Positions 17,032 to 38,089 of a DNA stretch of 64,000 bases are shown here, one piece after another. Every line of letters starts with the position of its first letter. The first letter of the stretch is position 1. The DNA lies in the NCBI GenBank assembly GCA_016209035.1, contig JACQWX010000005.1:6688-70687 (forward strand), given 5' to 3'. The notes under the pieces were generated by a model. The model made no database searches and was not told where the DNA came from. It worked only from the letters and a program-made list of their open reading frames with translations. Position numbers and translations under genes: made by a program. The DNA comes from Elusimicrobiota bacterium (lineage in GTDB: Bacteria > Elusimicrobiota > Elusimicrobia > UBA1565 > UBA9628).

Positions 17032-17196
17032 GGACTTTGCTCCTCCTGCCTGATTTTCTGGAACCATTATCCGAAAGTCGCCTGCATGGCTGGATGGGTC
17101 CAGAGGGGAGATTCCAGGAGGATTTGGGCCTACGGTGATTTGCACCGACTGCCAGGCGAGGTCCCAGAAACCTCGGGCCTTGGGTCCTGGGTGCGC

Positions 17197-17661: not shown

Positions 17662-17686
17662 GGGTTCCGGCGGCCTCCTCCCGGGG

Positions 17687-18196
17687 TCACTCCGGGTCCC
17701 CGCCCTGGATGTCGGCGATGGTGGACCCTGGCGGGAGGTCCTTGACCTGCTTGTGGACCTGGCCGAGCATGGACAGGTGGACCTGCCAGTCGGTCGGTTC
17801 GAAGTTGTCGGGGGTCAGGTTCCCTCCGAGCACGATGGGATGCTTGGCGGAGAGGCATTGCCCGGCTCCGAGCTTCGCCCCCCTGTCCAGGAGCCTGCGG
17901 ACCAGGTCCACGCGCAGCCACCCGGCCGCTTGCGGCGAAGTCCTGAGGGCGGCCGGCAGGTCCCCCGGAGCCAATCCCGTCCTGACGAAGGTCCCTGTGA
18001 AGGTGTCGAGGAAGTAGACCACTTCCGCGCGGCTGAAGAACCCCTCGGTCTTGACCACGAAAGCGTCTCCCATCGCGGTCACGAGCAGAGGACGCGCGCC
18101 GCGGCCCATCAGCCACCGCCAGTCATCGAGAGCGCCTTGCGCAGAGAGGTCGGCGATCTGCGCGACGAGCTTCGAGAGGTCCGGGTCCTGCGCCAT
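17687..18196 (-). CDS. hypothetical protein
   Basis: 169 aa with protein-like composition; no family recognised with confidence. Confidence 0.45.
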   Translation of the reverse strand: MAQDPDLSKLVAQIADLSAQGALDDWRWLMGRGARPLLVTAMGDAFVVKTEGFFSRAEVVYFLDTFTGTFVRTGLAPGDLPAALRTSPQAAGWLRVDLVRRLLDRGAKLGAGQCLSAKHPIVLGGNLTPDNFEPTDWQVHLSMLGQVHKQVKDLPPGSTIADIQGGDPE

Positions 18197-18694: not shown

Positions 18695-18948
18695 GCTGGC
18701 TTCACATCGAGTTCCTGCCCTCGGCGGCGGCGGACTTCCGCGCGCTCCCATCGGACATCAAATCCCGGGTCATCCTGTCCCTCGATATCATCGGCCGCGA
18801 TCCCAATGCCGGCAAGCCCCTGCAGGGCCCCTACTCGGGCCTGCGCTCTTTGCCGGTCGGCGACTACCGGGTCGTCTACCGGTGGGACGCTAGGAACTGG
18901 GTCGTCCTCATCCAGTGCATCGGCCACCGGAGGGACATCGACCGCTGA
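18691..18948 (+). CDS. RelE/ParE-family toxin
   Basis: 85 aa; ...LRSLPVGDYRVVYRWDARNWVVLIQCIGHRRDI. Confidence 0.7.
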   Translation: MSWLHIEFLPSAAADFRALPSDIKSRVILSLDIIGRDPNAGKPLQGPYSGLRSLPVGDYRVVYRWDARNWVVLIQCIGHRRDIDR

Positions 18949-18992
18949 TCTCAGGCGGATGGATATGCGCATTTTGTAGTATTCTCCCCATC

Positions 18993-21530
18993 ATGTGCGG
19001 CGTCATCGGGCTGCGGTGCGCTGGTGACCGGGACGACCTAGGCCTGGCGGCCTCGAGGCTGCTGCGGATGCTCGAGTATCGGGGCTACGACTCTACCGGC
19101 GCGGCCATCCAGACGCACGCCGGCGCGGTCACCCTGCTCAAGGACGTGGGCTCGCCCACGGTGGTCACCAAGAAGCTGGGCATCCACGGGCTCTCGGGCA
19201 AGATATTCTGCGGACAAGTGCGCTGGGCGACCTTCGGGATCGTCACCAAGGAGAACGCCCAGCCGCATGAGGTGCGCTGCAAGGCCCACCTCTACGGCGC
19301 CCACAACGGGAACGTCACCAACTGCGACCAGCTCAAGGACTGGCTGACCGGTCAAGGGCACCGGGTCGTCAGCGACAACGACGGCGAGATGCTGGTCCAC
19401 ACCATCGAGCATTTCTTCGCCCAGGAACTGCGCCGGACTTCCCGCAGGGACGAGGCCTTCAGGAAGGCGATCCTCGCCGCCGCCAGGAAGATGGTGGGCT
19501 CCTACGCGGCCGTCGTCGTGGACCCGGTCACGCACCTGGTGGCCGCCATCAAGGCCGGGAGCTCCCTCTACATGGGCGTCGGCCGCGACGCGGCGCACGG
19601 GCCCTTCACCATCGCGTCCTCGGACCTGGCGACCGTCTTGTCGCTCACCAAGATCCTCCTGCCCATCAGCGAGGACGAGTTCACGTTCTACACCCACGAC
19701 CACGCCCGGTTCTTCCATCTGCGCTCCGGCCGGCGGCTGGAGAAAGAGCCCGTGCGCAGCCGCCTCAGGGTGGAGGAGACCGAGCTCAAGGAACCCTTCC
19801 GGTACTTCATGCAGCAGGAGATATTCAGCCAGCCCGCGGCTGTTCGGAAGGTGATCGGCCTCTTCCTGCGGCGCTCTCCTCTCCTGAAGCTCTCGGGGGG
19901 CTTGGCCCGCCGGCATCCCGGCCTCGTCCGGCAGGCGCGCGCGGCCATCGGGCGCCTCTCCGCGCTGACCGACGCCGGGAAGATAGAGAAGGAGTTCGGC
20001 CGCTTCCTGAAGGGCGGTTTGTGCGCGAAGCTCTCGCGGATGACCCGCGGCCTGGGCTCCTGGCCCAGGGGCCGGAGAGCGGGTCCGGAAAGCTTCGAGT
20101 CCTCCACGGGAGGCTTCCTGGAGGAGCTCTCGGCGAAGACCCCGAAGGGCCTGCTCCCGGTCATGCGGCTCCTAGACGGCTGGTGCCTGCTCGACGAGGC
20201 GGACGAGGTCGCGGCCAGGTCCGGCGAGTTCGTGCGGAGGCTGGTCCGGGCCAAGCGAGACGGGCGCTGCGTCTACATGCTGGCCTGCGGCACCTCCTTC
20301 CACGCGGCCAAGGTGGCCTCCGTCTTCTTCAACAAGATCGCGGGCATCCGGGTGACCGCCATGCTGCCCGGCGATTTCAGGGCCGAGAGCGCGGAGTCTT
20401 TGGCCGACGGGGACCTCGTCATCGGCATCAGCCAGAGCGGGGAGACCAAGGACCTCATCGACGTCATCAACCTCATCCGCCGCTCGAGGCGCGAGGTCGG
20501 CGTCGTCACCGTGGTCAACAACGTCAACTCGACGCTGGCGCTGGAGAAGGCCGACCTCTGCCTGCCCCTGTCCTGCGGGCCGGAGATCGCGGTGCCCGCG
20601 ACCAAGAGCTTCATGAACCAGCTCGCGGTGCTCTACGTCTTGGCGCTCAAGGCCGCCGAGAGGACCCGGCCCGGCGGGGAGACCCGCAGGCGGCTCGACA
20701 ACCTCTTGAGGGTGCCGGCCCTGCTGGAGGAGACGGCGGCCTCCACCCGGGACGCGGTCGACCAGGCCGCCCTGGCCCTCTTCATGGAGCCGAGCATCCA
20801 CATCCTGGCCACGGGCATGCAGGGCGTGGCCAAGGAAGGCGCGCTCAAGGTCCGCGAGGTGGTCTTGAACCACACCGAGGGCTACGAGGGCGCGGAGTTC
20901 AAGCACGGCCCCAACACCATCCTCGGGGTCAACACCGTGTTCGGGCTGGAGGCGGTGCGCTCCATCCTGGGCTCCTTCGCGCGGTTCTCTGACGAGCTCG
21001 CCCGCAGGCGGTCGCTCTCGGCCAAGAGCCTGGCGAAGCTCTACAAAGCCGTGGCGGACTACGCCTTCGATGACATCGAGCCCTCGGGCCTCGACCGGGC
21101 GCAGAGCCACGCCTTCCGGCGCGTCTTCGAGAAGCACGACTTCTTCGCGAGCCTCTACACCAACTACCCGCTGGTGTTCGTGACCGGCCCCGCGGAGCGC
21201 GACGTCAACCTCACCATCTCGCAGATCAACACCCACAAGATCCGCGGCGCCGACGTCACCATCATCGCGGAAGACAACGCCGCTCTGCGCGACGCGGTGA
21301 GCCGCCCCCAGCCCACCCGGTTCGACAAGGAGTACCGGTTCGGCTACATCCGACTGCCCCGGACGGACGACGACCTCCTGCCCTTCTTCACCAGCACCAT
21401 CGCGCTCCAACTCCTGGCGCTCCACATGAGCGTGCGCAAGCTCACCCTGCTCGACAAGCTGGAGATCCTCGACCACGGCGTGCACCCGGACTCTCCTAAG
21501 AACGTCAGCAAGTCCATCACGGTGGACTGA
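18993..21530 (+). CDS. GlmS-like glutamine--fructose-6-phosphate aminotransferase homolog with large insertions (~846 aa)
   Basis: N-terminus MCGVIGL (class II GATase nucleophile Cys2); SIS motifs CVYMLACGTSFHAAK and GISQSGETKD; GlmS-like C-terminus KNVSKSITVD. About 230 aa longer than typical GlmS. Confidence 0.7.
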   Translation: MCGVIGLRCAGDRDDLGLAASRLLRMLEYRGYDSTGAAIQTHAGAVTLLKDVGSPTVVTKKLGIHGLSGKIFCGQVRWATFGIVTKENAQPHEVRCKAHLYGAHNGNVTNCDQLKDWLTGQGHRVVSDNDGEMLVHTIEHFFAQELRRTSRRDEAFRKAILAAARKMVGSYAAVVVDPVTHLVAAIKAGSSLYMGVGRDAAHGPFTIASSDLATVLSLTKILLPISEDEFTFYTHDHARFFHLRSGRRLEKEPVRSRLRVEETELKEPFRYFMQQEIFSQPAAVRKVIGLFLRRSPLLKLSGGLARRHPGLVRQARAAIGRLSALTDAGKIEKEFGRFLKGGLCAKLSRMTRGLGSWPRGRRAGPESFESSTGGFLEELSAKTPKGLLPVMRLLDGWCLLDEADEVAARSGEFVRRLVRAKRDGRCVYMLACGTSFHAAKVASVFFNKIAGIRVTAMLPGDFRAESAESLADGDLVIGISQSGETKDLIDVINLIRRSRREVGVVTVVNNVNSTLALEKADLCLPLSCGPEIAVPATKSFMNQLAVLYVLALKAAERTRPGGETRRRLDNLLRVPALLEETAASTRDAVDQAALALFMEPSIHILATGMQGVAKEGALKVREVVLNHTEGYEGAEFKHGPNTILGVNTVFGLEAVRSILGSFARFSDELARRRSLSAKSLAKLYKAVADYAFDDIEPSGLDRAQSHAFRRVFEKHDFFASLYTNYPLVFVTGPAERDVNLTISQINTHKIRGADVTIIAEDNAALRDAVSRPQPTRFDKEYRFGYIRLPRTDDDLLPFFTSTIALQLLALHMSVRKLTLLDKLEILDHGVHPDSPKNVSKSITVD

Positions 21531-22570: not shown

Positions 22571-24954
22571 GTCGAGGCGCCGCGCAAGGCCCTGCTGGCC
22601 GCCGCCGCGGCCAGCAGGCAGAAGACGGCCAGCGACGCGATGGAGGTCCACGCCCCGACGGCGAAAGCGGTCGGCCGGTACTCGAGCTTCAGCACGTGCC
22701 GTCCTGCTTCGAGCGGCACGGCCATCAGGGTATGGTTCGCCGGCAGTATCTGGAAGCTCCTCTGGCTGGACTCGACGGGGTGGAGCTTCCAGCCCCGGCT
22801 GAAATTGTCCGTGACCAGCAGGATGGAAGGTTCTTTGAGGACCACCTCCATCTCGGCGCCATCGGTAGAGGAACGCAGGAGGCGGACGTCGCCCTGGATG
22901 CCGGAGCGTCCCTTGCGGGGACGGGCCGGAACGGGCCTCGGTTCCGTTTCCAAGATGACCTTCTTCCTCGGGTCGAAGCCCGGCCGCAGGAGGACCGCGA
23001 GCCTTTCCTCCTTCCCCGGGATGACCTGGTAGTCCTGGAGCAGGTTGAGGCGCGGCATGTCGCCAGCTGCCCGCTGAGGAGGACGCCGAGGATCCTTCAG
23101 GACGTATCTGAGCCGCAGCATGGAGAAGACCTTGGGAAGAACGTTCACGGGCGGATACCGTTCGACCCGGCCGGCATCGGCGCCTTGCGAGGCGGCGATG
23201 AACTCGGCGTAGCGCTTGAGGCTCAGCTGAGAGTAGCCCATGAGATCGTAGAGTCCGAGGCGCATCGCGACGTTGGGATGGACGCTCCAATCGTGCAGGA
23301 CGCGGTAGTCCCCGGGGTCGGCCCGCAGTACCGCGCGCCAGCGCTCGGGGTACTGCGCCCCGGTCGACATGAGCCCTCGGGCGAGCCGGGAGAAGGCGCC
23401 CAGTTCCAGGACGGCCAGGAGCGCCAAGCCGTAGACGGCCATGGGGCGCGCGGCGGCGCCAAGACGGGGCCTGGACGCTGCGCCGGGCGCCCAAGCATGT
23501 CCTGATGGCGCCCGGCACGGCGGGCCATCCGGCCTGGACGCCGCGCTTGCCGCGAACAGCAGGGCCGCGACGGCGGCCATGACCCATGCCGCGTTGAAGA
23601 GCTCCTTGGCCGCGAAGGAGCCGGAGAGCTCGGCGAACTTGGGTCCGCTCGGCGTCCCCGCGGGGGCGAAGGTTTCCTGGGCACTCTCGATGTGCCGAAG
23701 CCACTCGCCCCAGCGGCCCTTGTCCTTGAGGCGGGCCGACGAGGACAGCCCGGCGGCTGAGACCATCATGGCGGCGGCGAGCACGAGGGCTGCCAGGGAG
23801 AGGTTCCGCGGCACGGCGCCCTGCTTGAGCCGGTCGAGGCCGGCGCCCGCGAGGGCCGAGAGGAAAAGGCAGGCGAGGAAGCCGAACTTGGCCGTCCCGC
23901 GGAAGAGGTCGTAGCCCGGGAGGGTGTGGTAGAGTGCCTTGTAGAGGGGCAGCCTCGCTCCCAAGGCGAGGATGAGCATGACGGCCGCCATGGCGGCGGG
24001 CATCCGCCAAGGCCGTTTGTCGCGGGCGAGGAGCGCGCTCGCCGCCAAGACGCAGCCCGCGAGGCTCACGAAGAGGGAGCCTTCCCAGATGTAGCAGCGG
24101 CCGAAGTAATGGAACCGATGGATGTCTCCCAGGAACCAGGGGACCGCGAGCGTGACGAGGTTCTCGGGAGGCAGCGAGAAGCTGGAGGCGAACGCGAAAG
24201 GAAGGCCGCCCGCCCTCACGGATTCGCGGGCGGCGTCGACGCCTGCCAGGAGCTGGACGGCTGTCAGGGCTGCTCCGCAAAAATACATGGTCGTCGTTCC
24301 GATCAGCGGAGCAGCCCTTCTCTCCGCCGTCGCCGTCCCCGCCGCCACGAGGAACGCCGCCATCGCCGTGTAATACACGTATTGCGGGTTGCCCGCGAGG
24401 ACCTGCATCGCGACCGCCGTCGCGCCGAAGAGCAGCCACCCGACCTTGCCGCGGCGGGAATGGCCCTCCAGGGCCAGGAGGATCCCCGGCGCCCAGGTCA
24501 TGGCGGCCAAAGGGGGCAGATGGCCGGCGTAGGCGTGGAGGAGCACGGGCCCTGAGAGCATGAACATGAGGCCCGCCAGCGTGGACGCGGCGGGACTCAA
24601 GTCCCGCATCCTGCACCAGGCATAGGTCAGGAGGCCCGCCAGGAAGACGTGGAAGGCGATGGTGAAGTTGAGGGCCGAATGAAGAGGGAAGACCAGGTGG
24701 ACCCAGTTGGGCGGGTAGAGCAGGGCGGATTCGAAGGCCCCGAAGAACGGCGCTCCCCCGAACACATGAGGGTTCCAGAGAGCGAGGTTCCCCCGGCCGA
24801 GTTCCCGGAAACCGAATTCCCGCCACGGCAGGAACTGGGAGGCGAGGTCGTTTGGGGCTCCGGACAAGACGAAGCCTGGGCCCGAGAACAGGGCCGGACC
24901 GCAATGGAGGACCGCGGCCGCGAGCAGGACCAGCGCGGGCGCGGTCCTCCTCAT
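22567..24954 (-). CDS. YfhO-family polytopic membrane protein (GT-C-like glycosyltransferase family)
   Basis: Starts at MRRTAPALVLLAAAVLH; N-terminal pattern ...DLASQFLPWREFGF...GNLALWNPHVFGGAPFFG is typical of YfhO; many TM segments; 795 aa. Confidence 0.7.
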   Translation of the reverse strand: MRRTAPALVLLAAAVLHCGPALFSGPGFVLSGAPNDLASQFLPWREFGFRELGRGNLALWNPHVFGGAPFFGAFESALLYPPNWVHLVFPLHSALNFTIAFHVFLAGLLTYAWCRMRDLSPAASTLAGLMFMLSGPVLLHAYAGHLPPLAAMTWAPGILLALEGHSRRGKVGWLLFGATAVAMQVLAGNPQYVYYTAMAAFLVAAGTATAERRAAPLIGTTTMYFCGAALTAVQLLAGVDAARESVRAGGLPFAFASSFSLPPENLVTLAVPWFLGDIHRFHYFGRCYIWEGSLFVSLAGCVLAASALLARDKRPWRMPAAMAAVMLILALGARLPLYKALYHTLPGYDLFRGTAKFGFLACLFLSALAGAGLDRLKQGAVPRNLSLAALVLAAAMMVSAAGLSSSARLKDKGRWGEWLRHIESAQETFAPAGTPSGPKFAELSGSFAAKELFNAAWVMAAVAALLFAASAASRPDGPPCRAPSGHAWAPGAASRPRLGAAARPMAVYGLALLAVLELGAFSRLARGLMSTGAQYPERWRAVLRADPGDYRVLHDWSVHPNVAMRLGLYDLMGYSQLSLKRYAEFIAASQGADAGRVERYPPVNVLPKVFSMLRLRYVLKDPRRPPQRAAGDMPRLNLLQDYQVIPGKEERLAVLLRPGFDPRKKVILETEPRPVPARPRKGRSGIQGDVRLLRSSTDGAEMEVVLKEPSILLVTDNFSRGWKLHPVESSQRSFQILPANHTLMAVPLEAGRHVLKLEYRPTAFAVGAWTSIASLAVFCLLAAAAASRALRGAST

Positions 24955-25301
24955 CTTCCGGAAGGCATGTACCGGATGTCGTCGACTTCGTAGACGGAGA
25001 GCCGCATCCTCTTGGAGGCTCTCTTCAGGATGCCTTTGAGCTCGGCGATTGACAGCCTCCCGTTGGCCTTGACCGTGATGACCACGGTCTGCTGCTCGAA
25101 ATCGGCCTCTGCCTTCGTGATCATGGGGTGGCGGGAGAACTCGGCCTGGATGGCCCTGCCGCAGGCATGGGTGAGCATCCCCTTGATCTTGATGAGATAG
25201 GGCCCGGGGGTCAGGTCCTTGTAGAGCTCCTTGGGCAGCGGGGCTCCAAGGGCGCCGGTCGTCGACAGAAGGCATGCGAGGAGGGCCGATCTCTTTAGCA
25301 T
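24951..25301 (-). CDS. small secreted protein with HMA-like (beta-alpha-beta-beta-alpha-beta) pattern but only one Cys
   Basis: Signal peptide MLKRSALLACLLSTTGALGA; GMLTHACGRAIQAEF...VVITVKANG; stop overlaps the YfhO start (ATGA). Confidence 0.5.
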   Translation of the reverse strand: MLKRSALLACLLSTTGALGAPLPKELYKDLTPGPYLIKIKGMLTHACGRAIQAEFSRHPMITKAEADFEQQTVVITVKANGRLSIAELKGILKRASKRMRLSVYEVDDIRYMPSGR

Positions 25302-25411: not shown

Positions 25412-28400
25412 ATGGGCAAGAAAGGTTGGGTGATGGACTTGGTCATCGGGCTCCTCCTGAGCCTTTTCGTGGCGGCCTGCTACCTGCTTCCTCCGGTCCT
25501 GCCGTTCATCGAAGCGCTCGAGCTCAAGTCGTTCGACATGCGCTCCACCTGGAGGCAGACCGCGGAACCTTCCCGCGAGATCGTCCTGGTGTCCATCGAC
25601 GATTCCGCGTTGGCGCAGGTCGGGCGCTGGCCCTGGCCCAGGTGGCGCATCGCGGCCCTGGTGGACAAGCTCTCCGGGGCGGGCTCCAAGGTCATCGGCC
25701 TCAACATCCTGCTCTCCGAGGAGGAGCAGAACGAGGGTTTGAAGGAGATCCAGAGGCTCCAGTCCCAGTACGAGGCGTTCGTCGCGTCCCGCAACATCGT
25801 CGAGAGGGGGGTCGCCTTCAGCGCGGAGTTCTCGTCCGCCGCGGTCCGGCTCGACACGGACTCTCGCCTGCTGGCCTCCATCCAAGGGGCAGGGAACGTG
25901 GTCCTGCCCATGTTCTTCGATCTTGGCGGGCTGGCCAAGCCCGAGCCGCTGCCGGCCGCGGTCTCGAGCTCGGTGGTGACCTACGCGGTGGTGCAGGGCT
26001 CCCAGGAATCCGAGATTCCGGACGGGAGCAAGGCCACCTACCCCATCGTCAGGCTCGCCGAGGCCGCGGCGGGCGTGGGGCACGTGAACGTCTACAGCGA
26101 CATCGACGGCTCGGTCCGGCGCGAGATCCCGGTCGTCAAGTACGGCGAGAGCTACTACCCGTCCTACGCCCTGAGGCTGATCATGGCCTACATGGGGCTG
26201 CCCACGACGGACGCGGTCTTCACCCCCGGGGTGAGGCTGCAGGCGGGCAAACTCGAGGTCCCGCTCGACTCGTCCAACGGGATGCTCGTCTCGTTCGTGG
26301 GCCCGGTGGGGACCTTCCAGTCCTACTCCTATCGGGAGGTGATGAAGGAGGATTTTCCGACGGACACCTTCAAGGGGAAGATCGTCATCGTCGGCCTCAC
26401 CGCCGCCGGGGTGGGGACCCTCTACGTCACGCCCGCGGCCCCTGCCCTCCCTTCCATCGAGCTGACCGCCAACGTCATCGAGAACATCCTCAACCGCAGG
26501 TTCCTGACCAGGCCGCCGTGGGCCGCGCGGGCCGAGCTCGGGCTCCTGGGGCTCGTCGCCCTGTTCCTGATGGTCGTCTACCCGAGGCTCAAGGCCTTGT
26601 GGGGCAACCTCCTGGCCCTCGTGCTCCTGATCTGCATCCCGACCGGCGGCTTCTTCCTCTTCCAGCAGGGCCTCTGGCTCAAGGTCACCTACCCGGTGAC
26701 GCTCCTGTTCTGCGGGTGTCTGGTCAGCCTCGCGCGCAGGCTCATCGGAACCGAGAAGGGCAAGGAGCTCGTGGAGGCCTCGGCCATCGAGCAGGCCCGG
26801 ATGCTGGGACTCTCCTTCCAGGGGCAGGGCATGCTTGACATGGCCTTCGACAAGTTCCGCCAGTGTCCCGTCGACGACAACCTCAAGGACGCCCTCTACA
26901 ACCTGGCCCTGGACTTCGAGCGCAAGCGCCAGTACGCCAAGGCCGTCTCGGTGATGGAGCACATCGCGGTCACGGACCCCGCGTACAAGGACATTCCGGA
27001 GAAGATGAAGCTCCTTAAGGCGGCCAGCGAAGGCGCGGTCTTCGGCGGCGTGGGCCAGTCGAAGAAGGAGGGCACGGTCCTCATCACCGGCGGGGCGACC
27101 AAGCCCACCCTGGGCCGCTACGAGATCGAGAAGGAGCTCGGGCGCGGCGCCATGGGCGTCGTCTACCTCGGCCGCGACCCCAAGATCAACCGCATGGTCG
27201 CCATCAAGACCATGATGATGGAGGAGGGCACCGACGCCGCGGCCGCCAAGGAGATCAAGGAGCGCTTCTTCCGCGAGGCCGAGTCCGCGGGCACCCTCAA
27301 CCACCCCAACATCATCCGCATCTTCGACGCGGGCGAGGAATCCGACGTATGCTACATCGCGATGGAGCTCCTCGAGGGCAACGACCTGACGCAGTTCACG
27401 GCCAAGGACAAGCTCCTGCCGCCCGTCCAGACCATGGAGTACGTCGCCCTGGTGGCGGACGCCCTGGACTTCGCCCATGCCCAGGGCATCGTGCACCGCG
27501 ACATCAAGCCGGCCAACATCATGCTGCTCAAGGACGGCACCATCCGCGTGGCGGATTTCGGCATCGCGCGCATCACCGCCTCCTCCAAGACCGCGACCGG
27601 CACGATCATGGGCACCCCGTCCTACATGAGCCCGGAGCAGGTGGCGGGCAAGAAGGTGGACGGCCGGTCCGACCTGTTCTCGCTCACCGTCGCGCTCTAT
27701 GAGTTCCTGACCGGCGAGAAGCCTTTCAAGGGCGGCGAGGGGATCGGCACGCTCCTCTTCCAGATCGCCAACGACCCCCATCCCGACCCCGTGACCATCA
27801 GGGGTGACCTGCCTCCCGGCATCAAGCCGATCATCGACAAGGGGCTGGCCAAGAACCCGGATCAGCGCTATGCCCGGGGTTCCCTCATGGCCGCGGATTT
27901 GCGCGCGCTGATCGCGGCGATCAAGTCAGGAAAGCCGACCGGGCCCGCTGACCCGGCCTCCGGCCGGGCGCCCCCGGCCCCCGCGGTCCAGGCTCCGCAG
28001 GCAGTGCCGCCGCTCCCTCCGCCCGAGGCCCCGCTGACGCAGGTCGTGGAGACGCCGCCGTCAGCCCCGATCAAGATTCCCGCGTTCGTGGGCGAGGACT
28101 CGTCTTCCGGATTGGCGCATCTTCTTGCGGCCGCGTCGGCCGCGCCGGCTCGGTCGCCCAGCGAGGTGACGGATCCGGGCATTCCCCTGGCTCCTGCCCG
28201 AGAAAGGAAGGCTGCGGAAATCCCGTCTCTAGAGCCCCCTGTCGAGGCGGCTCCGACGCCTGAGCCGGTGGTGGAAGCTCCGGCGCCCGAGCCCGCGCTT
28301 GAGCCTGCTCCCGCGGTCGAGCCGGCCCCGGAGCCCGGTGCCCCGGCGTATTCGGCCGCGGAAGAGGAGACCATCGTGATGGCGCCCGGCAGCATCCCGG

Positions 28401-28792
28401 TGATCTCGCCGGAGCTGATGAACGCGCCTGCGCCTGAGCCCGCCCCGGCGGTCGAGCCGGCCCCGGAGGCGCCCCCGACGGTCGAGATGCCCCCGGTCTG
28501 CGAGCCTGCGGGTGAAGGCGAATTCAAGATCGCGTTGGAGCCCCGTGCGACTCTCAAGCCGGCTTCGAAGCCGGAAACAGCCCCCACCGCCCTGCCGGGG
28601 CCGGTGCCTCCTCCGCCTTCTGCCGGTGAGCAGCCGTCGTCTGATTCGGAGTTCAAGATCGTGCTGGAGCCGCGGGCGACCATCAAGTCCGAGCCCGAAG
28701 CGGGCCCGCCGGCGCCGTCCTCGGACAAGACCGTCGTGCTTCCGCCGGGGTGGAAGCCGCCCGGGACGCCCGCGGAGGAGAAACCGGCATGA
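25412..28792 (+). CDS. CHASE2 extracellular sensor fused to a Hanks-type Ser/Thr protein kinase with a Pro/Ala/Glu-rich repetitive tail
   Basis: CHASE2 region VSIDDSALAQVGRWPWPR; TM segments; kinase motifs GRGAMGVVYLG...VAIK, HRDIKPANIML, DFGIA, GTPSYMSPE. Tail repeats: APAPEPA(L)EPAPAVEPAPE twice and EFKI(A/V)LEPRAT(L/I)K twice. Start could also be 25433. Confidence 0.8.
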   Translation: MGKKGWVMDLVIGLLLSLFVAACYLLPPVLPFIEALELKSFDMRSTWRQTAEPSREIVLVSIDDSALAQVGRWPWPRWRIAALVDKLSGAGSKVIGLNILLSEEEQNEGLKEIQRLQSQYEAFVASRNIVERGVAFSAEFSSAAVRLDTDSRLLASIQGAGNVVLPMFFDLGGLAKPEPLPAAVSSSVVTYAVVQGSQESEIPDGSKATYPIVRLAEAAAGVGHVNVYSDIDGSVRREIPVVKYGESYYPSYALRLIMAYMGLPTTDAVFTPGVRLQAGKLEVPLDSSNGMLVSFVGPVGTFQSYSYREVMKEDFPTDTFKGKIVIVGLTAAGVGTLYVTPAAPALPSIELTANVIENILNRRFLTRPPWAARAELGLLGLVALFLMVVYPRLKALWGNLLALVLLICIPTGGFFLFQQGLWLKVTYPVTLLFCGCLVSLARRLIGTEKGKELVEASAIEQARMLGLSFQGQGMLDMAFDKFRQCPVDDNLKDALYNLALDFERKRQYAKAVSVMEHIAVTDPAYKDIPEKMKLLKAASEGAVFGGVGQSKKEGTVLITGGATKPTLGRYEIEKELGRGAMGVVYLGRDPKINRMVAIKTMMMEEGTDAAAAKEIKERFFREAESAGTLNHPNIIRIFDAGEESDVCYIAMELLEGNDLTQFTAKDKLLPPVQTMEYVALVADALDFAHAQGIVHRDIKPANIMLLKDGTIRVADFGIARITASSKTATGTIMGTPSYMSPEQVAGKKVDGRSDLFSLTVALYEFLTGEKPFKGGEGIGTLLFQIANDPHPDPVTIRGDLPPGIKPIIDKGLAKNPDQRYARGSLMAADLRALIAAIKSGKPTGPADPASGRAPPAPAVQAPQAVPPLPPPEAPLTQVVETPPSAPIKIPAFVGEDSSSGLAHLLAAASAAPARSPSEVTDPGIPLAPARERKAAEIPSLEPPVEAAPTPEPVVEAPAPEPALEPAPAVEPAPEPGAPAYSAAEEETIVMAPGSIPVISPELMNAPAPEPAPAVEPAPEAPPTVEMPPVCEPAGEGEFKIALEPRATLKPASKPETAPTALPGPVPPPPSAGEQPSSDSEFKIVLEPRATIKSEPEAGPPAPSSDKTVVLPPGWKPPGTPAEEKPA

Positions 28793-29616
28793 CGAAGTCT
28801 TCCCTCGAGACCTGGGGGCGGACGGACCGCGGGTGCGTGCGCGAGGTGAACGAGGACAACCTCATCATCGATGACGACATCGGCCTGCTGGCGGTGGCCG
28901 ATGGGATGGGCGGGCACAACGCCGGTGAGGTGGCCAGCTCCATCGCGGTCTCCCAGATCCGCGACCTCGCCCGGAGGGCTCTCGGCGGGACCCAGGACAT
29001 CGTCCCGGAGGGCCCCAACCCGAACCTTTCTCGGCGCGGGCGGCAGCTCGAATGGTTTGTCAAGAACGCGAACACCATCATCTTCAAGAAGGGGCGCGAG
29101 GCGGCGAAGCAGTACGGGATGGGCACGACCGTCGTGGCCGTCCTCGCCGACGGGCGCTCGCTCACCGTCGCCCATGTCGGCGACAGCCGTCTCTACCTCT
29201 TCAGGAAGGGCGCGCTAACCCAGCTCACGGAGGACCATTCCCTGGTCAGCGACCAGGTGCGCAAAGGGCTCCTGACCGCGGACGAGGCGTCGCGCTCGAC
29301 CTTGCAGAACATCCTCACCCGGGCGCTGGGGACCGAGGAGGACGTCCAGGTGGACGTCGCGGACCATCCCCTGCTGGAGGGGGACGTCCTTCTGCTCGCC
29401 TCGGACGGGCTGACCAAGGAAGTGACGGAGGAGCAGATCAGGCGCACGATCGAGAAAAACCCCTCGCCGAACGCCTTCGTGGACCGGCTGGTGGACATGG
29501 CCCGCGACCACGGCGGGCACGACAACATCACGGTGGTCGCGTGCCGCGTGCCTTCGCCGGGCTGGCGGCAGGTGATCGAGGGTCTCAAGAAGATGGTGTT
29601 GGGGAGAGGTGCTTGA
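28788..29616 (+). CDS. PP2C-family Ser/Thr phosphatase
   Basis: LAVADGMGGHNAGEVAS...DNITVVA; ATGA overlap with the kinase stop. Confidence 0.85.
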
Positions 29617-29620
29617 TCCC

Positions 29621-30361
29621 ATGCCAAAATTCCTCCTGAAATTCAACGCTGCGGTCATCAAAGAGGTCCCGATGGCCAAGGAGAGCCTCACGGTGGGCCG
29701 CAAGGCGGACAACGACGTCGTCATCGACAACCCGGCCGTTTCCGGGCACCACTGCAAGATCAGCGTGCAGGGCGGCACCTGTTTCGTGGAGGACCTCGAT
29801 TCCACGAACGGCACCTACGTCAACGAGAAGCGGATCAAGAAGGCCGGGCTGCACCACAACGACGTCGTCGGGGTCGCCCGGCACGCCCTCGTCTTCATCG
29901 AAGACACCGTTCCCATCGATCCGGCCGCTGCCCCGGCGCCCAAGTCCGCGGACGCCACCGTGGCGATCCCTCCCGAGAAGCAGGCTGAGATCGCCGCGGC
30001 GCAGGCCGCGACGCAGGAGGCCAGCCAGAAGCTTGGGGTCCTCAAGGTCCTCAAGGGCGAGGTGGGAGCGAAAGAATACGAGCTCAAGGGCATGTCCACC
30101 TACCTCGGCAAGTCCGACCGGGTGCAGGTGCCCATCAAGGGCTCGGGCCTCTTCGGGTCGGCTCCCGAGGTGGCCGCCTCCATCCACCGCAAGCCCGACG
30201 GGTACTACCTGCTGGCCATAGAGGAGGGCTACCCGGCCGTCAATGGGGTCAAGGTCTCCGGGAGCATGCTCCTCAAGGACGGCGACCTCATCGAATGCGG
30301 AGGGACGACGATCCAGTTCAACCTCAAGGATATCCGTCCCGACGCCACGAAGGCCCCGTAG
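29621..30361 (+). CDS. protein with two FHA domains
   Basis: LTVGRKADNDVVIDNPAVSGHHCKI...STNGTYVNEKRI and a second LGKSDRVQVPI...GYPAVNGVKVSGSMLLKDGDLIECGG; RBS GGGGAGAGG. Confidence 0.75.
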   Translation: MPKFLLKFNAAVIKEVPMAKESLTVGRKADNDVVIDNPAVSGHHCKISVQGGTCFVEDLDSTNGTYVNEKRIKKAGLHHNDVVGVARHALVFIEDTVPIDPAAAPAPKSADATVAIPPEKQAEIAAAQAATQEASQKLGVLKVLKGEVGAKEYELKGMSTYLGKSDRVQVPIKGSGLFGSAPEVAASIHRKPDGYYLLAIEEGYPAVNGVKVSGSMLLKDGDLIECGGTTIQFNLKDIRPDATKAP

Positions 30362-32973: not shown

Positions 32974-33068
32974 GGGGCGCGGCTCCTGGTGACCGCACGA
33001 GCGCCCCTTGCCCTCCCCTAGTGCGCCGGTCGCAGGACCGGTGGGCCGGAAATCAATATTTAACAAGG

Positions 33069-35057
33069 ATGGCTTACACTTTCATCCGCATGGCAAGCTC
33101 CATGCCGTACATGGTCATGATGGCCTTCGTCGCCGCCGCGGCAGCGGCTGGGGGCGGATCCGGGATCCAGTCTCCCGACCTGGGGCTCCTGCAGGAGCAG
33201 AACCGCATCAAGGCCGAATCCGAGTCGAAGATCCAGCGCGACATCCTCGACCCCATGCTCGGGGAGGGGAAGGCCAAGGTCTTCGTCGACGTGGAGATGG
33301 AGGTCAAGATCGAGCGCGAGGAGGCCAAGCGCAGCGGCCTGGGCTTGGCGGAGCGCTACAAGGAGAAGCAGGGCGCTCAGAAGGGCCTGGGCGCCGACAC
33401 CCTCTACGTCCTGCCCGGGATCCCCAAGCCCAAGACCATCAGCCAGGGCCTCAGCACCGACAAGCCCGAGTCCCTGCTCGCCCGGCAATCGGAGCAGACC
33501 AAGGGCATCGAGGAGGAGCGCTACGCCCAGAAGCCGGTCTTCAAGCGGATGGAGGTCAAGGTCTTACACGACGCCACGGTGCTGACGACCGCGGTTGAGC
33601 AGAAGCCCGTGCGGGACAGCATCGTCGACGCGATGGGGCAGTACCAGCTCACGCAGGACCAGGTGGTCTTCAGGGCCATGAAGTTCAATAGGGTCCTCAT
33701 CAACTGGGTCGACGACCTCAAGAAGCCTTCGGTCTACCTCCCGCTCCTCTACGCGTTCCTGCTGCTCCTGCTGCTGTTGTTCCTGTTCGGGCCGCTGGCC
33801 CGGTTCCTGCGCCAGTACGTGGCCGCCCTGAGAGAGAAGCCCGCGGCCGAGGTCAACGTCGAGTCGAAGATGGAAGCTCCGGAAGAGAAGGGGAAGGAGG
33901 AAGAGGGCTTGAATGAGGGCGCGCTCGACATCACCCTCCAAAGAAAGCCCTCCGAGTCGCAGGAGGACGAGTCCATGAAGAAATTCGAGCCCTTCTCCTA
34001 CATCAACGAGGAGAACATCAAGAGGCTGGTCTACATGTTCCTCCTGCGCAAGGAGGAGCCCTGGATCATCGCGGTGGTGGCCAGCTACCTGCGGCCCGAG
34101 TTCGCCCGGGCCCTTCTGACCGCGCTGCCGGTCGAGCTCCAGTCCAAGGTGGCCCTGGAAGCCCTCACGGTGCGATCGTTGACCAAGGAGCAGGTGCAGG
34201 CCATCGACGGCGAAATCAAGGAGAAGGTGGATTTCGTGGTGGGAGGGATCGAGCGGCTGGTCTCCATGCTCGACGAGGCCGACGTCGCGACCCGCAACAA
34301 CATCCTCAACTACCTCAAAGACGAAAAGCCTTCCTTGTACGAGAAGGTCCGGAAGTTCATCATGATCTTCGACGACATCGTCGGGTTCTCGGACCGCGAC
34401 GTCCAGACCATCGTGCGCGAGCTCAAGCCCGACAGCATGGCCAAGGCCCTCCAGAACGCCTCGCCCGAACTGGTCAACAAGTTCTTCTCGAACATGTCCG
34501 CCGGCGCGGGGAGCCTCCTGAGGGAGGCCATGGAGTACGTCACGGGCCTGACCGAGGAAAAGATCGAGGAGGAGAGGTCCAAGATCATCGAGACCGTAAA
34601 GGTGCTCGACAAGGAGGGCAGGATCGCGGTGCGGGCCAAGGTCGACGAGAGCATGGGGTTCGAGGCCCTGCAGGAGGAGCTCTCCTCCCGTGAGAGGCGC
34701 GAGCGCTCAGGCCCCGGGCCTTCGGCCCAGGCCGCGGCCCCGGCGCCGTCCGCGGGGCCTGCGCCCGCGCCTCAGGCGGTCGTGCCCGAAGAACAGGCCG
34801 CGCAGGCGCAAGGCTATCTCCAGAGCGGCATCTCCTATCACGACTCCGGGCAGCTGGATGCCGCCGTCCAGTACCTCGAATACGCGTTGACGCTGGACCC
34901 TTCGCTGTGGCAGGCGCACCAGTATCTGGGGGGCATCTGCTATCAGATGGGGCGGACCGCCGAGGCCCTGACGCACTACGAGAGACTCTTGGAGCTCCAT
35001 CCCGACCCTCAGATGCAGCAGTGGGTGGAGAGCTTCAAGTCCCAGGCAGGTAAATGA
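33069..35057 (+). CDS. fusion protein: signal/TM, a periplasmic FliF-like region, a second TM, cytoplasmic FliG middle and C-terminal domains, and C-terminal TPR
   Basis: TM2 LPLLYAFLLLLLLLFLFGPLARFL. FliG-like block: EENIKRLVYMFLLRKEEPWIIAVVASYLRPEFARALLTALP...LTKEQVQAIDGEI...IMIFDDIVGFSDRDVQTIVRELKPDSMAKALQNASPELVNKFFSNMSAGAGSLLREAMEY. TPR at the end. The N-terminal 300 aa of the track ORF are junk. Confidence 0.7.
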   Translation: MAYTFIRMASSMPYMVMMAFVAAAAAAGGGSGIQSPDLGLLQEQNRIKAESESKIQRDILDPMLGEGKAKVFVDVEMEVKIEREEAKRSGLGLAERYKEKQGAQKGLGADTLYVLPGIPKPKTISQGLSTDKPESLLARQSEQTKGIEEERYAQKPVFKRMEVKVLHDATVLTTAVEQKPVRDSIVDAMGQYQLTQDQVVFRAMKFNRVLINWVDDLKKPSVYLPLLYAFLLLLLLLFLFGPLARFLRQYVAALREKPAAEVNVESKMEAPEEKGKEEEGLNEGALDITLQRKPSESQEDESMKKFEPFSYINEENIKRLVYMFLLRKEEPWIIAVVASYLRPEFARALLTALPVELQSKVALEALTVRSLTKEQVQAIDGEIKEKVDFVVGGIERLVSMLDEADVATRNNILNYLKDEKPSLYEKVRKFIMIFDDIVGFSDRDVQTIVRELKPDSMAKALQNASPELVNKFFSNMSAGAGSLLREAMEYVTGLTEEKIEEERSKIIETVKVLDKEGRIAVRAKVDESMGFEALQEELSSRERRERSGPGPSAQAAAPAPSAGPAPAPQAVVPEEQAAQAQGYLQSGISYHDSGQLDAAVQYLEYALTLDPSLWQAHQYLGGICYQMGRTAEALTHYERLLELHPDPQMQQWVESFKSQAGK

Positions 35058-37075
35058 CCATGGCCGACGAACGACAACACGATCCCAACGAACCGGTGCC
35101 GCCTCCCTTGCCGCCCTTCGCGGGGCGCCCCGGCCAGCCGCCGCCTCTTCCAGGGGGCCAGCCTCCGGGGGCGCCGCCGCCTGCCCTGCCGGGCCCTCCG
35201 CCTTCGGTGCCGCTTTCGCTGCCTTCCGGTTTTCCTCCACCCGGCACGGCGCCCATGCCTTCGGTGCCGCAGGTGCCGCCTCCCGGCCCCGCGTCCATGG
35301 CGCCCGCGCCAGGACGGTTACCCCCGCCGCCTGGTCCTGCGCCCATGGCGCAGGCGCCTCAGACGCCCAGGCCGCCGGCCGCGCCCTTCGCTCCGATGAT
35401 GCCCGCCAGGGGCGTGGCGTCTCCGCCCGCCCCGCCCTTCGCAGCGGCGCCGGCGCCGCAGGCGCAGCCGCCGAAGGGGACGGACCCCGCGGCCGTCAAG
35501 GAGGAATACGAGAGGAAGCTGGCCGCGATGGAGAAGCGCCTGCAGGAGGAGCGGGAGAAGGTCCTCCTCGCCAACCTCAAGAGCCAGTCTGAGGCCGCGA
35601 CCGCGGCCAAGGTCGAGGTCGCCATCAAAGAGCTGCAGGACAAGATCCGCCGGGATCGGCGCGACCAGGAGTCCGAGGAGCTCAAGCACAAGCTCGACAC
35701 GAGGGTGGTTGAGCTCGAGACCAGGCTCGCCCAGGAGCGCGAGACCTGGCTCGTGACCCTCAAGAACCAGATGACCCAGCGCGAGGTCCAGGACAAGGAC
35801 TTCGAGTCCCAGCTCGCCGGGCGGCTCCAGGAGATGGAGCGGCGTTGGCTGGAGGAGAAGGCGGTCTGGCAGAAGACGGTAGGCGCCAAGGACGACGAGA
35901 TCCGCAACCTCAGGAACCTCGCGGAGAAGCTCAAGGGGGTCGAGGTCGAATGGGGGAAGGTATCGAGCGAGAAGAAGAACCTCGAGGAGAGGCTGGCCGA
36001 ACTCGTGAAGGAGAAGGCCGACTCCCAGCTCAAGGCGCAGAAGGGGCTGGAGGCCGAGAAGGAGGCGATCGGGCTTCGCGCCGAGCTCTCCGTGGCGAGG
36101 CAGCAGCTCGCCTCGGTGTCGGAGAGGCTCGAGCGCGACCTTCAGGCCATGCGCCAGTCGGCGCGGGAGCGGGAGGACCGGCTGACCTACGAGGTGGACC
36201 GGCTGCAGCGGGAGCTCTCGGGCCTGGGCCAGCGCATGAGGATGGAGCACGAGGCCGAGCTCAAGCGGGCCAAGGACCAGGGCGAGTCCGAGAAGAGCCA
36301 ATATAAGGAAAAGGCGGACAAGTCCGCGGCGGACGTCGCGAAGCTCAAGGCCATCCTGGCCGCCATGGAGCGGCAGGCCGCGATGAGCCGCGCCCAGGTC
36401 ATGCAGCTGCGCAAGTCGGCGTCCGAGTGGGAGAAGACCCAGGAGCACTACAAGGCCGAGTTCGTGGTGCTCCAGAGGCGCTGGGCCGACCGGGAGCGGG
36501 AGATCCGCTCCGAGGTCGAGGCGAACCTTTCCCGGGTCTTCGCGGCGGACATGGACAAGGCCCGGGCGGTGTTCGAGGAGAGGCTCAAGAAGGAGACCGA
36601 GGCCCTCAACGAGAAGACGGGCTCCCAGGGCCGCGAAGCCATGATGGAGAAGGAGAAGGAGATCATGGCCCTGCAGCGGACCATCGAGGATCTCTCCAAG
36701 GCGAAGACCGGCGAGGAGGAGGAGAAGCGCTCGACCAAGGCCGCCTTGGAGGAGTCCCAGCGCGGCTCTCGGGAGGGCGCCGCCAGGCTCGATGCGTCCC
36801 TTCGGACCCTCCAGGAGGAGGCGGGCGCGCTCAAGGCCGACCTGGCCGACGCCCGCGAGAGGCTCGAGATCGCGGAGAAGGCCGGGGCCTCGATGGCCTC
36901 GGAGAAGTCCGAGCTCCAGCGTCTCTCCATGGCCCAGGCCGCGGAGATCAAGAACATGCAGGACGCCTTCTTCGGCCTGCGCGGCCAGCTCGCCAAGGAC
37001 GCCCAGTTGGCGAAGTCCTTCATGGAGGAGCGGGAGAGGCTGGAGAGGCGGATCAGGGAGCTGGAGGGGAGATGA
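35054..37075 (+). CDS. proline-rich N-terminus followed by a ~480-aa coiled-coil protein
   Basis: PPPLPPFAGRPGQPPPLPGG... then heptad-rich EEYERKLAAMEKRLQEEREKVLLANLKSQ...; ATGA overlaps at both ends. Confidence 0.65.
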   Translation: MTMADERQHDPNEPVPPPLPPFAGRPGQPPPLPGGQPPGAPPPALPGPPPSVPLSLPSGFPPPGTAPMPSVPQVPPPGPASMAPAPGRLPPPPGPAPMAQAPQTPRPPAAPFAPMMPARGVASPPAPPFAAAPAPQAQPPKGTDPAAVKEEYERKLAAMEKRLQEEREKVLLANLKSQSEAATAAKVEVAIKELQDKIRRDRRDQESEELKHKLDTRVVELETRLAQERETWLVTLKNQMTQREVQDKDFESQLAGRLQEMERRWLEEKAVWQKTVGAKDDEIRNLRNLAEKLKGVEVEWGKVSSEKKNLEERLAELVKEKADSQLKAQKGLEAEKEAIGLRAELSVARQQLASVSERLERDLQAMRQSAREREDRLTYEVDRLQRELSGLGQRMRMEHEAELKRAKDQGESEKSQYKEKADKSAADVAKLKAILAAMERQAAMSRAQVMQLRKSASEWEKTQEHYKAEFVVLQRRWADREREIRSEVEANLSRVFAADMDKARAVFEERLKKETEALNEKTGSQGREAMMEKEKEIMALQRTIEDLSKAKTGEEEEKRSTKAALEESQRGSREGAARLDASLRTLQEEAGALKADLADARERLEIAEKAGASMASEKSELQRLSMAQAAEIKNMQDAFFGLRGQLAKDAQLAKSFMEERERLERRIRELEGR

Positions 37076-37299
37076 TCTCGCTCCACAAGCTCAACGGCGC
37101 CCAATTCGTCCTCAACGCGGAGCTCATCGAGAGCGTCGAGCCCGGGCAGTCCCAGTGCCTGGTGTGCCTTGCGACCAGCAACAAGTTCGTGGTCAGGGAA
37201 TCGGCGGAGGAGGTCGTCCAAAAGGTGATAGAATACCGAAAGAAGGTCAACGCCGAGGCCAAGGTGGTCAACCCCATCGCCGGCTTCAAGAGGGAGTGA
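37072..37299 (+). CDS. flbD: FlbD-family protein (small flagellar/stator-associated protein)
   Basis: MISLHKLNGAQFVLNAELIESVEPG...LATSNKFVVRESAEEVVQKVIEYRKKV fits the FlbD pattern MI.LTRLNG..F.lN.dLIE.iee.pDTvI.LtnGkk.vVkEs.eEvi.KiieYkr. Confidence 0.7.
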   Translation: MISLHKLNGAQFVLNAELIESVEPGQSQCLVCLATSNKFVVRESAEEVVQKVIEYRKKVNAEAKVVNPIAGFKRE

Positions 37300-37303: not shown

Positions 37304-38089
37304 ATGGACATTGCGACCGTGATGGGCATCATCGTCTTCATGGGCCTGGCCGTGACCGCGATCTTCATCCAGGAGGGGAAGGCGGGCTTCGTCCCGTTCC
37401 TGAATTTGGAGGCGTTCCTCCTCATCGCGGGCGGGACCTTCTGCTCCACCCTGGTGAACTACCCCTTGAAGCAGATCGTGGGCCTCGGCAGGATCCTGCG
37501 CAAGGTGCTCTTGAGCTCGGGAGAGGAGACCGCCGACATCGTGGGGACTTTCGTGAGCCTCTCGCAGAAGGCCAAGAAGGAAGGCTTCCTGGCGCTCCAG
37601 GCCGACGTGAGCGCCCTCAAGGACGACTTCATGCGCCGCGCCGTCCAGCTCGTCATCGACGGCCAGGACCAGGAGTTCATCCGCTCCATGCTCGAGACCG
37701 AGATCGGCTTCATCCGGGAGCGCCACAAGGTCGGCCAGGAGATCTTCAACGCCATGGGCACCTATTCCCCGGCCTTCGGCATCATCGGCACGGTCCTGGC
37801 CATGATCCTGATGCTCTCCAGCATCTCCGACGTCTCGGCGGTGCCGCGGCGCATGGCCTTGGCCCTGGCGTCCGCCTTCTACGGGCTGACCGCCGGCTAC
37901 CTCGTGTTCCTGCCCATGGGAGGCAAGCTCAGGCGCCGCTCGGAGGAGGAGCTCCTGGTCAAGGAGATCGTCATCCGCGGGGTCCTGCTCCTGCAGAGCA
38001 ACGCCACCCCCAGCGTCGTGGAAGCGAACCTCAAGGCCTACCTCGAGCCCGCCAAGAGGACGAGCGTGAAGGGGACGGCCGGAGCTTGA
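37304..38089 (+). CDS. motA: MotA/PomA-family stator protein (MotA/TolQ/ExbB superfamily)
   Basis: 4-TM pattern; ...AFGIIGTVLAMILMLSSISD...FYGLTAGYLVFLPMGGKL; the FlbD-MotA-MotB order supports MotA. Confidence 0.8.
   Translation: MDIATVMGIIVFMGLAVTAIFIQEGKAGFVPFLNLEAFLLIAGGTFCSTLVNYPLKQIVGLGRILRKVLLSSGEETADIVGTFVSLSQKAKKEGFLALQADVSALKDDFMRRAVQLVIDGQDQEFIRSMLETEIGFIRERHKVGQEIFNAMGTYSPAFGIIGTVLAMILMLSSISDVSAVPRRMALALASAFYGLTAGYLVFLPMGGKLRRRSEEELLVKEIVIRGVLLLQSNATPSVVEANLKAYLEPAKRTSVKGTAGA

Follow-up and report, generated by a model that had tools for sequence, protein, structure and literature searches.

Several described systems join a Ser/Thr kinase to a phosphothreonine reader of the forkhead-associated (FHA) type. 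GarA/OdhI is an FHA regulator of 2-oxoglutarate dehydrogenase, glutamate dehydrogenase (GDH), and glutamate synthase (GOGAT), in which phosphorylation of an ETTS motif by PknG/PknB turns enzyme binding off (PMC12321487, PMC2784874); GarA has been described as "unique to the Actinobacteria" (PMC12321487). In Rv1747, an ABC transporter of Mycobacterium tuberculosis and a PknF substrate, FHA-1 is followed by a disordered linker with pT152/pT210 and by FHA-2 (PMC8339232), and the threonine phosphorylation pathway of the type VI secretion system (T6SS) consists of PpkA, PppA, and Fha1 (PMC5995506). Here we analyze a 64-kb window (the whole stretch of DNA studied) of a high-GC Elusimicrobiota metagenome-assembled genome (MAG), in which a CHASE2 receptor kinase, a PP2C phosphatase, and a tandem-FHA protein are encoded one after the other (referred to below as the trio). 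In our reading the trio is a phospho-switch module built around an adaptor, with the 2-oxoacid/succinyl-CoA node as its probable target, and we give this reading about an even chance of being correct. A search of an available literature collection returned nothing specific on the tandem-FHA family, on CHASE2-kinase/FHA modules, or on Elusimicrobia FliG/MotA.

The first gene of the trio (25412..28792, + strand) encodes a CHASE2 receptor Ser/Thr kinase of 1,126 aa, assigned through Pfam, its catalytic motifs, and its transmembrane (TM) segments, and identical (100%) to the NCBI entry [quoted passage not shown] (P0001). The extracytoplasmic CHASE2 domain (PF05226; aa 24-380, E = 6.5e-56, 190.2 bits against a Pfam gathering threshold of 26.3) is accompanied by hydrophobic segments, read from the sequence, at aa 7-26 (TM1), 376-391, 400-417, and 425-441, that is, by the one N-terminal and three C-terminal TM helices that surround CHASE2 in members of this class. 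A helical linker leads from the TM helices (aa 376-441) to a kinase domain (PF00069; aa 570-822, E = 2.5e-52, 178.3 bits against a Pfam gathering threshold of 31.7), which places the protein among the Hanks kinases; its catalytic motifs are intact (VAIK, aa 596-599; HRDIKPAN, aa 695-702; DFG, aa 715-717) and the activation loop is of the TxT type. The ATG of the PP2C gene (28789..29616, +; 275 aa) overlaps the TGA of the kinase gene as ATGA, and the two are translationally coupled. Its product is a PP2C by Pfam, is placed in the Stp1/IreP family by the NCBIfam equivalog NF033484 (245.8 bits, cutoff 230), and retains the metal-binding motifs DGMGGH, SDG, and DN. Four nucleotides past the PP2C stop begins the gene for a 246-aa FHA protein (29621-30361). 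The three-gene arrangement given in a preliminary description of this DNA is borne out by both the open reading frames (ORFs) and Pfam.

The FHA protein, which we term the adaptor, is better conserved than the kinase, with 64-83% identity over its full length among 120 homologues. Its N-terminal domain, FHA1 (aa 1-95; 29621..29905, +), is a canonical phosphothreonine-binding FHA domain by Pfam, alignments, and AlphaFold. It scores 82.6 bits against PF00498 (Pfam threshold 20.7), which establishes FHA membership, and G26-R27, S41..H44, and S61-T-N-G-T65 (including N63 and G64) are invariant in its orthologues. By fold, GarA/OdhI are its top matches, with GarA first (E = 5.9e-9, TMt 0.93); GarA is also its best sequence-profile match (1.3e-13), by a narrow margin over EmbR, Rv1747, and FhaA. 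The best NCBIfam match of FHA1 is FhaB/FipA, whose 72.7 bits lie below the cutoff of 125. The C-terminal domain, FHA2 (aa 136-238; 30026..30334, +), has no PF00498 match in Pfam, where only Yop-YscD_cpl appears, below threshold (18.5 bits against 33.2, E = 0.0024). Its AlphaFold model (pLDDT 87) nevertheless matches the FHA domains of FhaA, OdhI, Ki67, and GarA in Foldseek with TM values of 0.72-0.86. Over 96 diverse members of the family, FHA2 conserves G163 (100%), K164 (73%), R190 (69%, with a further 20% K), and N208 (99%), and the canonical FHA Ser/His are not conserved in this set. An alignment of FHA2 with FHA1 in hhalign gave no profile similarity (probability 0.5%), so an origin of FHA2 by duplication of FHA1 was rejected at the sequence level and FHA2 is assignable by fold only. 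The designation as a "two-FHA protein" is thus correct at the level of the modeled fold, whereas Pfam recognizes the N-terminal FHA domain alone.

Between the two domains AlphaFold places a disordered stretch (pLDDT <50) and a helix. The linker carries the motif SADATVAIPP with T113 (29945..29974, +), of which the core D-A-T113-[M/V]-x-[I/L] is near-invariant in alignments of Elusimicrobiota and belongs to the same class of motifs as those in the kinase tails (see below). It is kept in homologues of only 31-39% identity, as EKTMIF/AKTMVF in Comamonadaceae, DRTMVL in Desulfuromonadales, EPTMFI in Gammaproteobacteria, and GGTVIL in Vicinamibacteraceae (Acidobacteria). A profile search with FHA2 over 1.8 billion proteins recovered 501 representatives (50% clusters), most of them 225-275 aa in length and with the same layout, and the linker has a T-hydrophobic-x-hydrophobic motif in 44 of 69 family representatives. 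T113 is a candidate regulatory phospho-acceptor.

The kinase ends in a disordered-looking tail of about 280 aa (27944..28789, +) that is rich in Pro, Ala, and Glu (Pro+Ala, 40%), keeps a coding-like GC content by codon position, and, by translation, composition, and motif statistics, carries repeated short motifs. An A/P-rich repeat had been reported twice; two copies do exist, 135 nt apart and with 87% DNA identity, but the second (APAPEPAPAVEPAPE; 28424..28468, +) is 4 residues shorter than the first (APAPEPALEPAPAVEPAPE; 28277..28333, +). The motif EFKI(A/V)LEPRAT(L/I)K was found in both of its reported copies, as EFKIALEPRATLK (28520..28558, +; aa 1037-1049, with T1047) and EFKIVLEPRATIK (28649..28687, +; aa 1080-1092, with T1090), which lie 129 nt apart within a 56-nt repeat (28503-28558 versus 28632-28687) of 73% DNA identity. 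Over the 13 codons, the copies differ by 5 synonymous and 2 conservative changes. Since the differences are mostly synonymous, the EFKI repeat is probably a peptide motif under selection and neither tandem duplication of DNA nor misassembly need be invoked. The description of these as DNA-level tandem repeats did not hold: Tandem Repeats Finder gave only two trivial arrays of 7-9 nt. With no relevant array and with copies that diverged mainly at synonymous sites, we rejected DNA tandem repetition or misassembly as the origin of the 28.2-28.7 kb region. In the closest relative (P0002; 72% identity) three EFKI-type copies form a regular 46-aa unit, and another relative (P0004) has three copies of EFQI(M/V)LE(P/R)RAT(L/F)(K/R); the R-A-T-hydrophobic-[K/R] core is intact in 8 of 8 copies from the three genomes. 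Compared with these, the tail in the window holds a protein-level tandem that has decayed to two units.

Whether orthologues conserve the tail repeats had been set as a test of their role, with a mixed answer that depends on how narrowly the motif is drawn. In orthologues, tail length ranges from 15 to about 550 aa and the copy number of repeats is variable; of the 120 best orthologues, only 3 have the exact motif EF[KQ]I.LE.RAT. More general Thr-centred motifs are, however, common to the tails of the family. Against composition-preserving shuffles, T-hydrophobic-x-hydrophobic is enriched about 14-fold (243 observed versus 17.2 +/- 4.0), and the same motif with a [DEGR]x prefix was counted 172 times versus 2.1 +/- 1.6; at least one copy is present in 101 tails and at least two in 85. 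Enriched around the tail Thr are D/E at -2 (49%), K/R at -1, I/M/L/V at +1, R at +2, I/L/V at +3, and P at +5, typical examples being SPDATIRIKP, DGTMRIEP, and SDKTISIGPEITIPGLND. Many FHA domains classically prefer a hydrophobic residue at +3. By the same motif statistics, two sites in the window fit the family motif, namely, T987 (EEETIVM) in EEETIVMAPGSIPVISPELM (28361..28420, +) and T1107 (SDKTVVL) in SDKTVVLPPGWKPPG, which together with the conserved C-terminal ...EEKPA end takes up 28721..28789 (+); their counterpart (S)DKT[IV]V[LM]xPGS is repeated 2-6 times in the closest relatives. The RAT threonines T1047 and T1090, with R at -2 and P/S at +3, do not fit the family motif [D/E]-x-T-hydrophobic-x-hydrophobic. 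The proposal of a conserved docking Thr in the tail is accordingly supported by comparison in a modified form, but not for the EFKI..RAT sites on which it had been built: T987 and T1107 would be the best candidate phospho-docking sites, with the clade-specific T1047 and T1090 as secondary candidates. The adaptor of the window has a clade-specific C-terminal extension with a further D-A-T motif, PDATKAP (30338..30358, +; alignment). Extensions of the form PDATK(M)A(P/I) (P0122 and P0124; PDSTQMA in P0183) occur only in the clade with EFKI..RAT kinases and may mark co-evolution of kinase tail and adaptor.

To place the trio in its genomic setting, one genome per species was scanned, which returned 542 relatives, and the 80 loci kept from these were mapped by tblastn. 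Wherever the 66 nonredundant Elusimicrobiota loci have enough flank, the kinase gene (54/54) and the PP2C gene (65/65) lie upstream of the FHA gene; the trio is a phylum-wide Elusimicrobiota signaling operon. On the other side, of 51 loci whose flank 3' of the FHA gene reaches 3 kb or more, 38 encode a 2-oxoacid:ferredoxin oxidoreductase and/or the succinyl-CoA synthetase SucCD. The oxidoreductase alpha and beta subunits were identified by the 2-oxoacid:acceptor oxidoreductase models TIGR03710/TIGR02177, and SucC and SucD likewise by models. Adjacency persists despite rearrangement: the oxidoreductase genes are on the same strand as the trio in 32 loci (in 8 of them with gaps of 93-184 nt) and inverted, yet adjacent, in 10; in 2 loci SucCD directly follows the FHA gene. 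An arrangement independent of that in Elusimicrobiota, with the order sucC-sucD-PP2C-FHA, is seen in Comamonadaceae (Giesbergeria, Simplicispira, Acidovorax, and relatives). From this conserved neighborhood alone, the oxidoreductase/SucCD node is the most likely output of the trio. A 134-aa ORF between the FHA and oxidoreductase genes of one locus (L001) is poorly conserved and of low complexity and was set aside as probably not a gene.

We propose the following scheme. A signal at CHASE2 would activate the kinase, which would phosphorylate Thr residues in its own Pro/Ala-rich tail (T987 and T1107, secondarily T1047 and T1090), and FHA1 of the adaptor would dock on the tail phospho-Thr. The adaptor would in turn be phosphorylated on the matching linker motif D-A-T113-V-A-I, and the phospho-linker might then be bound by the adaptor's own FHA, within or between molecules, switching its availability for a target; PP2C would reset the system. 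The self-association step is suggested by the precedents of GarA/OdhI and of the FHA1-linker-FHA2 arrangement in Rv1747. A more specific version, which we advance tentatively and consider distinctly less probable than the general one, is that the tandem-FHA protein is a GarA-like phospho-switch outside Actinobacteria that binds and modulates the oxidoreductase and/or SucCD when unphosphorylated and is released once the CHASE2 kinase phosphorylates the linker Thr.

Several observations weigh against a metabolic output, or against parts of the scheme. Beyond the domain assignments, its mechanistic steps are inferred. The oxidoreductase and SucCD genes are not in the 64-kb window, and therefore the proposed target is unlinked here. 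Genes upstream of the trio are moderately conserved too, namely, those for a divergent small HMA-like protein (24951..25301, - strand, in the window; identified with Pfam and present in 25 of 44 Elusimicrobiota loci) and BioY (24 of 44), and phylogenetic inertia may account for some of the synteny. Metabolic neighbors are lacking in the deepest branches of Elusimicrobiota and in several further clades, where a FecR protein, AccC, or ribosomal genes are found instead. Outside the phylum, PP2C-FHA pairs lie beside PilT-like ATPases, cyclases, and cNMP-binding or GAF-HD-GYP proteins, and these varied neighbors imply that the family has no single universal target. As for the likeness to GarA, its lead over other FHA domains in the sequence-profile comparison is small (54 versus 52 and 49 bits), and KGD, the target of GarA, has no relationship to the ferredoxin-dependent oxidoreductase.

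One conserved target for all FHA2 proteins was considered and rejected, as neighbors differ by phylum (PilT-like ATPases, cyclase, cNMP-binding, GAF-HD-GYP, and FecR proteins); judged from gene neighborhoods, the constant core is PP2C plus the tandem-FHA adaptor, with kinase type and output varying by lineage. In deep-branching Elusimicrobiota (L063, 10702-13619; also L062), the next gene after the trio, co-directional and spaced by 2 nt, encodes a 564-aa FecR-domain protein and is overlapped by a gene for a 407-aa protein with no assigned function; the metabolic genes are not found there. In some Gammaproteobacteria (L079, 5311-10663; also L080 and L081), an apparent operon encodes a HEAT-repeat kinase, two PilT-like T2SSE ATPases, and, last, the FHA homologue; hence motility-type outputs do occur in the family. 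GAF-HD_5 (HD-GYP-like) proteins are encoded near PP2C/tandem-FHA pairs in three unrelated lineages (L082, 10688-12283; L086, 17726-18874; L087, 36-2030); for other family members the neighbors are a guanylate/adenylate cyclase and an MshEN-T2SSE ATPase (L089) or a cNMP-binding protein and a PDEase_II-like hydrolase (L091/L092). These associations hint at a link between the tandem-FHA adaptor family and nucleotide second messengers. Farther upstream in the window, an 871-aa protein with glutamine amidotransferase and SIS domains (18915-21530, +) exceeds a typical GlmS by about 260 aa, and the closest relatives likewise have its gene conserved ahead of the operon.

Receptor Hanks kinases such as PknB, PrkC, and Stk1 most commonly serve envelope growth and division, and the trio could belong to a PknB/PstP/FhaA-FhaB-like module of that kind, in which CHASE2 would respond to a cue from the envelope or from outside the cell, and proteins of envelope synthesis would be recruited through the adaptor. 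The FhaB/FipA match of FHA1, the presence of FhaA among the structural matches, and the Stp1/IreP affiliation of the PP2C are consistent with this, and the window encodes a YfhO-like protein, PBP1A, an AsmA-like protein, and an alanine racemase. Yet these envelope genes are not conserved operon neighbors across relatives, the kinase is devoid of PASTA domains, and the FhaB score is far under its cutoff; we regard such a role as unlikely, if the foremost of the alternatives to a phospho-switch on the metabolic node.

Still less likely, in our estimate, is that the trio works like PpkA/PppA/Fha1 but gates the assembly or activity of a motor, as the preliminary description had suggested. The adjacency to which that suggestion appealed is real: the trio lies 0.7-8 kb upstream of a cluster for TPR, FliG-like, coiled-coil, FlbD, MotA, and MotB proteins. 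However, the stop of the FHA gene directly abuts the stop of a convergent gene for a 264-aa protein (unk264) at 30361/30362, with zero intergenic bases, and because this gene separates them the trio and the motor cluster are not one operon. A block encoding an outer membrane protein (OMP) and the TPR and FliG-like proteins is found within 10 kb of the trio in 9 Elusimicrobiota loci, which could be taken to favor a functional tie inasmuch as the motor block thereby recurs, farther off (+7 to +10 kb), in 8 more loci; but in 8 of the 9 the oxidoreductase/SucCD genes intervene. L011, L027, and others show the order FHA, oxidoreductase (KOR), SucCD, unk264 (reverse), OMP, TPR, and FliG, which is the order in the window plus about 6.2 kb; the window and the relative nearest to it (L004/L007) are alone in lacking the metabolic block between trio and FliG block. 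The junction at 30361/30362 is the usual site of the ~6.2-kb oxidoreductase-SucCD block, which makes for a clean rearrangement, and the contact of the trio with FliG/FlbD/MotAB is most parsimoniously explained by loss or relocation of that block in this lineage. As the adjacency merely reflects the missing block, the trio is probably not a dedicated motor switch. Direct adjacency is limited to 1 of 51 informative relatives, a relative of 75% identity (P0004) has rpsF-ssb-rpsR-rplI-dnaB 3' of the trio, and the docking motif [D/E]xT-hydrophobic-x-hydrophobic occurs in 0 of the 10 proteins of the motor cluster. The gammaproteobacterial operon with two PilT-like motor ATPases speaks for motor gating, whereas the failure of the FHA protein against the TagH/Fha model and the lack of T6SS genes in the window speak against it. 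The link between kinase trio and motor would then be a local accident of gene order.

The FliG-like gene (about 33066-35057, +) encodes a protein of about 660 aa in which two hydrophobic segments flank a presumably periplasmic domain of about 190 aa, followed by FliG_M, FliG_C, and C-terminal TPRs; it looks like a miniature FliF-like/FliG fusion; its score lies below the FliG equivalog cutoff (102.7 versus 226.7 bits). It is followed by genes for a 673-aa Pro-rich coiled-coil protein (35054-37075), FlbD (37072-37299), MotA (37304-38089), and MotB (38096-38920). No further flagellar genes were found in the 64-kb window. The FliG/MotAB cluster is kept in several Elusimicrobiota genomes and may be a nonflagellar FliG/stator machine.

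Least likely of all is that the kinase tail is a fast-evolving low-complexity spacer of no signaling role with repeats from slippage or misassembly, for although its richness in Pro and Ala, the range of tail lengths and copy numbers, and the narrow distribution of the exact EFKI motif would suit a spacer, the conserved peptide under synonymous divergence argues against recent slippage or assembly collapse, and the intact R-A-T cores, the excess of Thr-centred motifs over shuffles, and the recurrence of the same motif in the adaptor linker across phyla are at odds with it.

Two further regions of the window lie upstream of the trio. From 839 to 12985 are encoded a Prim-Pol/D5-type primase-helicase, an SNF2/ResIII helicase, an AAA_24 protein, a PD-(D/E)XK nuclease, a helix-turn-helix (HTH) protein, and a large serine recombinase (11156-12985); GC falls to 0.60-0.61 at 8-12 kb, and the region has the look of a mobile element that integrated here or of what is left of a prophage. 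The adjoining segment (13114-18196, -) encodes a 1,343-aa protein without a Pfam match and two small proteins, one with a T6SS_Tdi1_C immunity domain (17687-18196). A polymorphic toxin and its immunity protein may be encoded here, unrelated to any T6SS apparatus in the window.

If the GarA-like version of the phospho-switch is right, an extracellular signal would be coupled directly to 2-oxoglutarate/succinyl-CoA flux in Elusimicrobiota, and via other kinases in Comamonadaceae, and the multi-motif kinase tail would serve the adaptor for docking and so enrich it at the membrane. Post-translational control of the tricarboxylic acid cycle through FHA proteins is currently seen as an actinobacterial speciality; an FHA adaptor of another architecture with a conserved internal Thr switch, linked by gene neighborhood to the oxidoreductase and SucCD in Elusimicrobiota and independently to sucCD in Betaproteobacteria, would mean that this logic is more widely spread or has arisen repeatedly. 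It would also offer a concrete way into how metabolism is regulated in Elusimicrobiota, an uncultured phylum, and the family is testable in cultured Comamonadaceae, e.g., Giesbergeria and Acidovorax.

Set against the known systems, the module belongs to the broad Hanks kinase/PP2C/FHA class. With the T6SS pathway it shares a membrane Hanks kinase with an extracytoplasmic sensor, a cognate PP2C, and a co-encoded FHA protein that is likely both kinase substrate and phosphothreonine reader, and in this generic sense the T6SS-like three-part logic first ascribed to it stands. It differs in that its sensor is CHASE2 and not vWA, its FHA protein is much shorter and fails the TagH model (TIGR03354; 44.4 versus 120.25 bits), and the machinery beside it is not a conserved partner; Pfam scans of the window genes gave no Tss proteins, the only related match being the Tdi1_C-like immunity domain mentioned above. 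An affiliation with T6SS was therefore rejected. The PknB-PstP-FhaA/FhaB systems of Actinobacteria and Stk1/Stp1 of Firmicutes likewise combine a receptor Hanks kinase having an activation-loop TxT with FHA adaptors encoded alongside, and their resemblance to the trio extends to the PP2C, which passes the Stp1/IreP model, but the trio is without PASTA repeats and rodA/pbpA-type neighbors, and its adaptor has another architecture.

The adaptor has the layout of the Rv1747 module, with a canonical FHA domain, an unstructured linker with a (here candidate) phospho-acceptor Thr, and a more divergent second FHA domain; the FHA-1 domain of Rv1747 is the third-best PDB sequence match of FHA1 (E = 4.3e-13). 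The adaptor differs from it as a free-standing protein of 246 aa rather than the N-terminus of an ABC transporter, in having a dedicated PP2C partner, and in its linker, where one conserved Thr, of predicted phosphorylation only, is followed by a helix. With GarA/OdhI, the top structural and sequence-profile matches of FHA1, it has in common its small size, its stand-alone state, and a conserved Thr motif that lies in disordered sequence beside the FHA domain, as well as a genomic tie, seen in most Elusimicrobiota and in Comamonadaceae though not in the window, to enzymes acting between 2-oxoacid and succinyl-CoA. In contrast to GarA/OdhI, it has two FHA-fold domains instead of one, its Thr motif is D-A-T-V in the interdomain linker instead of an N-terminal ETTS, its kinase is a CHASE2 receptor and not PknG, and the enzyme encoded nearby, a 2-oxoacid oxidoreductase that depends on ferredoxin, is unrelated to KGD/OdhA. 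Given this architecture and the failure of the OdhI equivalog (46.4 versus 200 bits), we rejected membership in the GarA/OdhI family itself. What is new here is the combination of a CHASE2 sensor, a multi-motif docking tail, a free-standing FHA-linker(Thr)-FHA family, and a recurrent link to sucCD.

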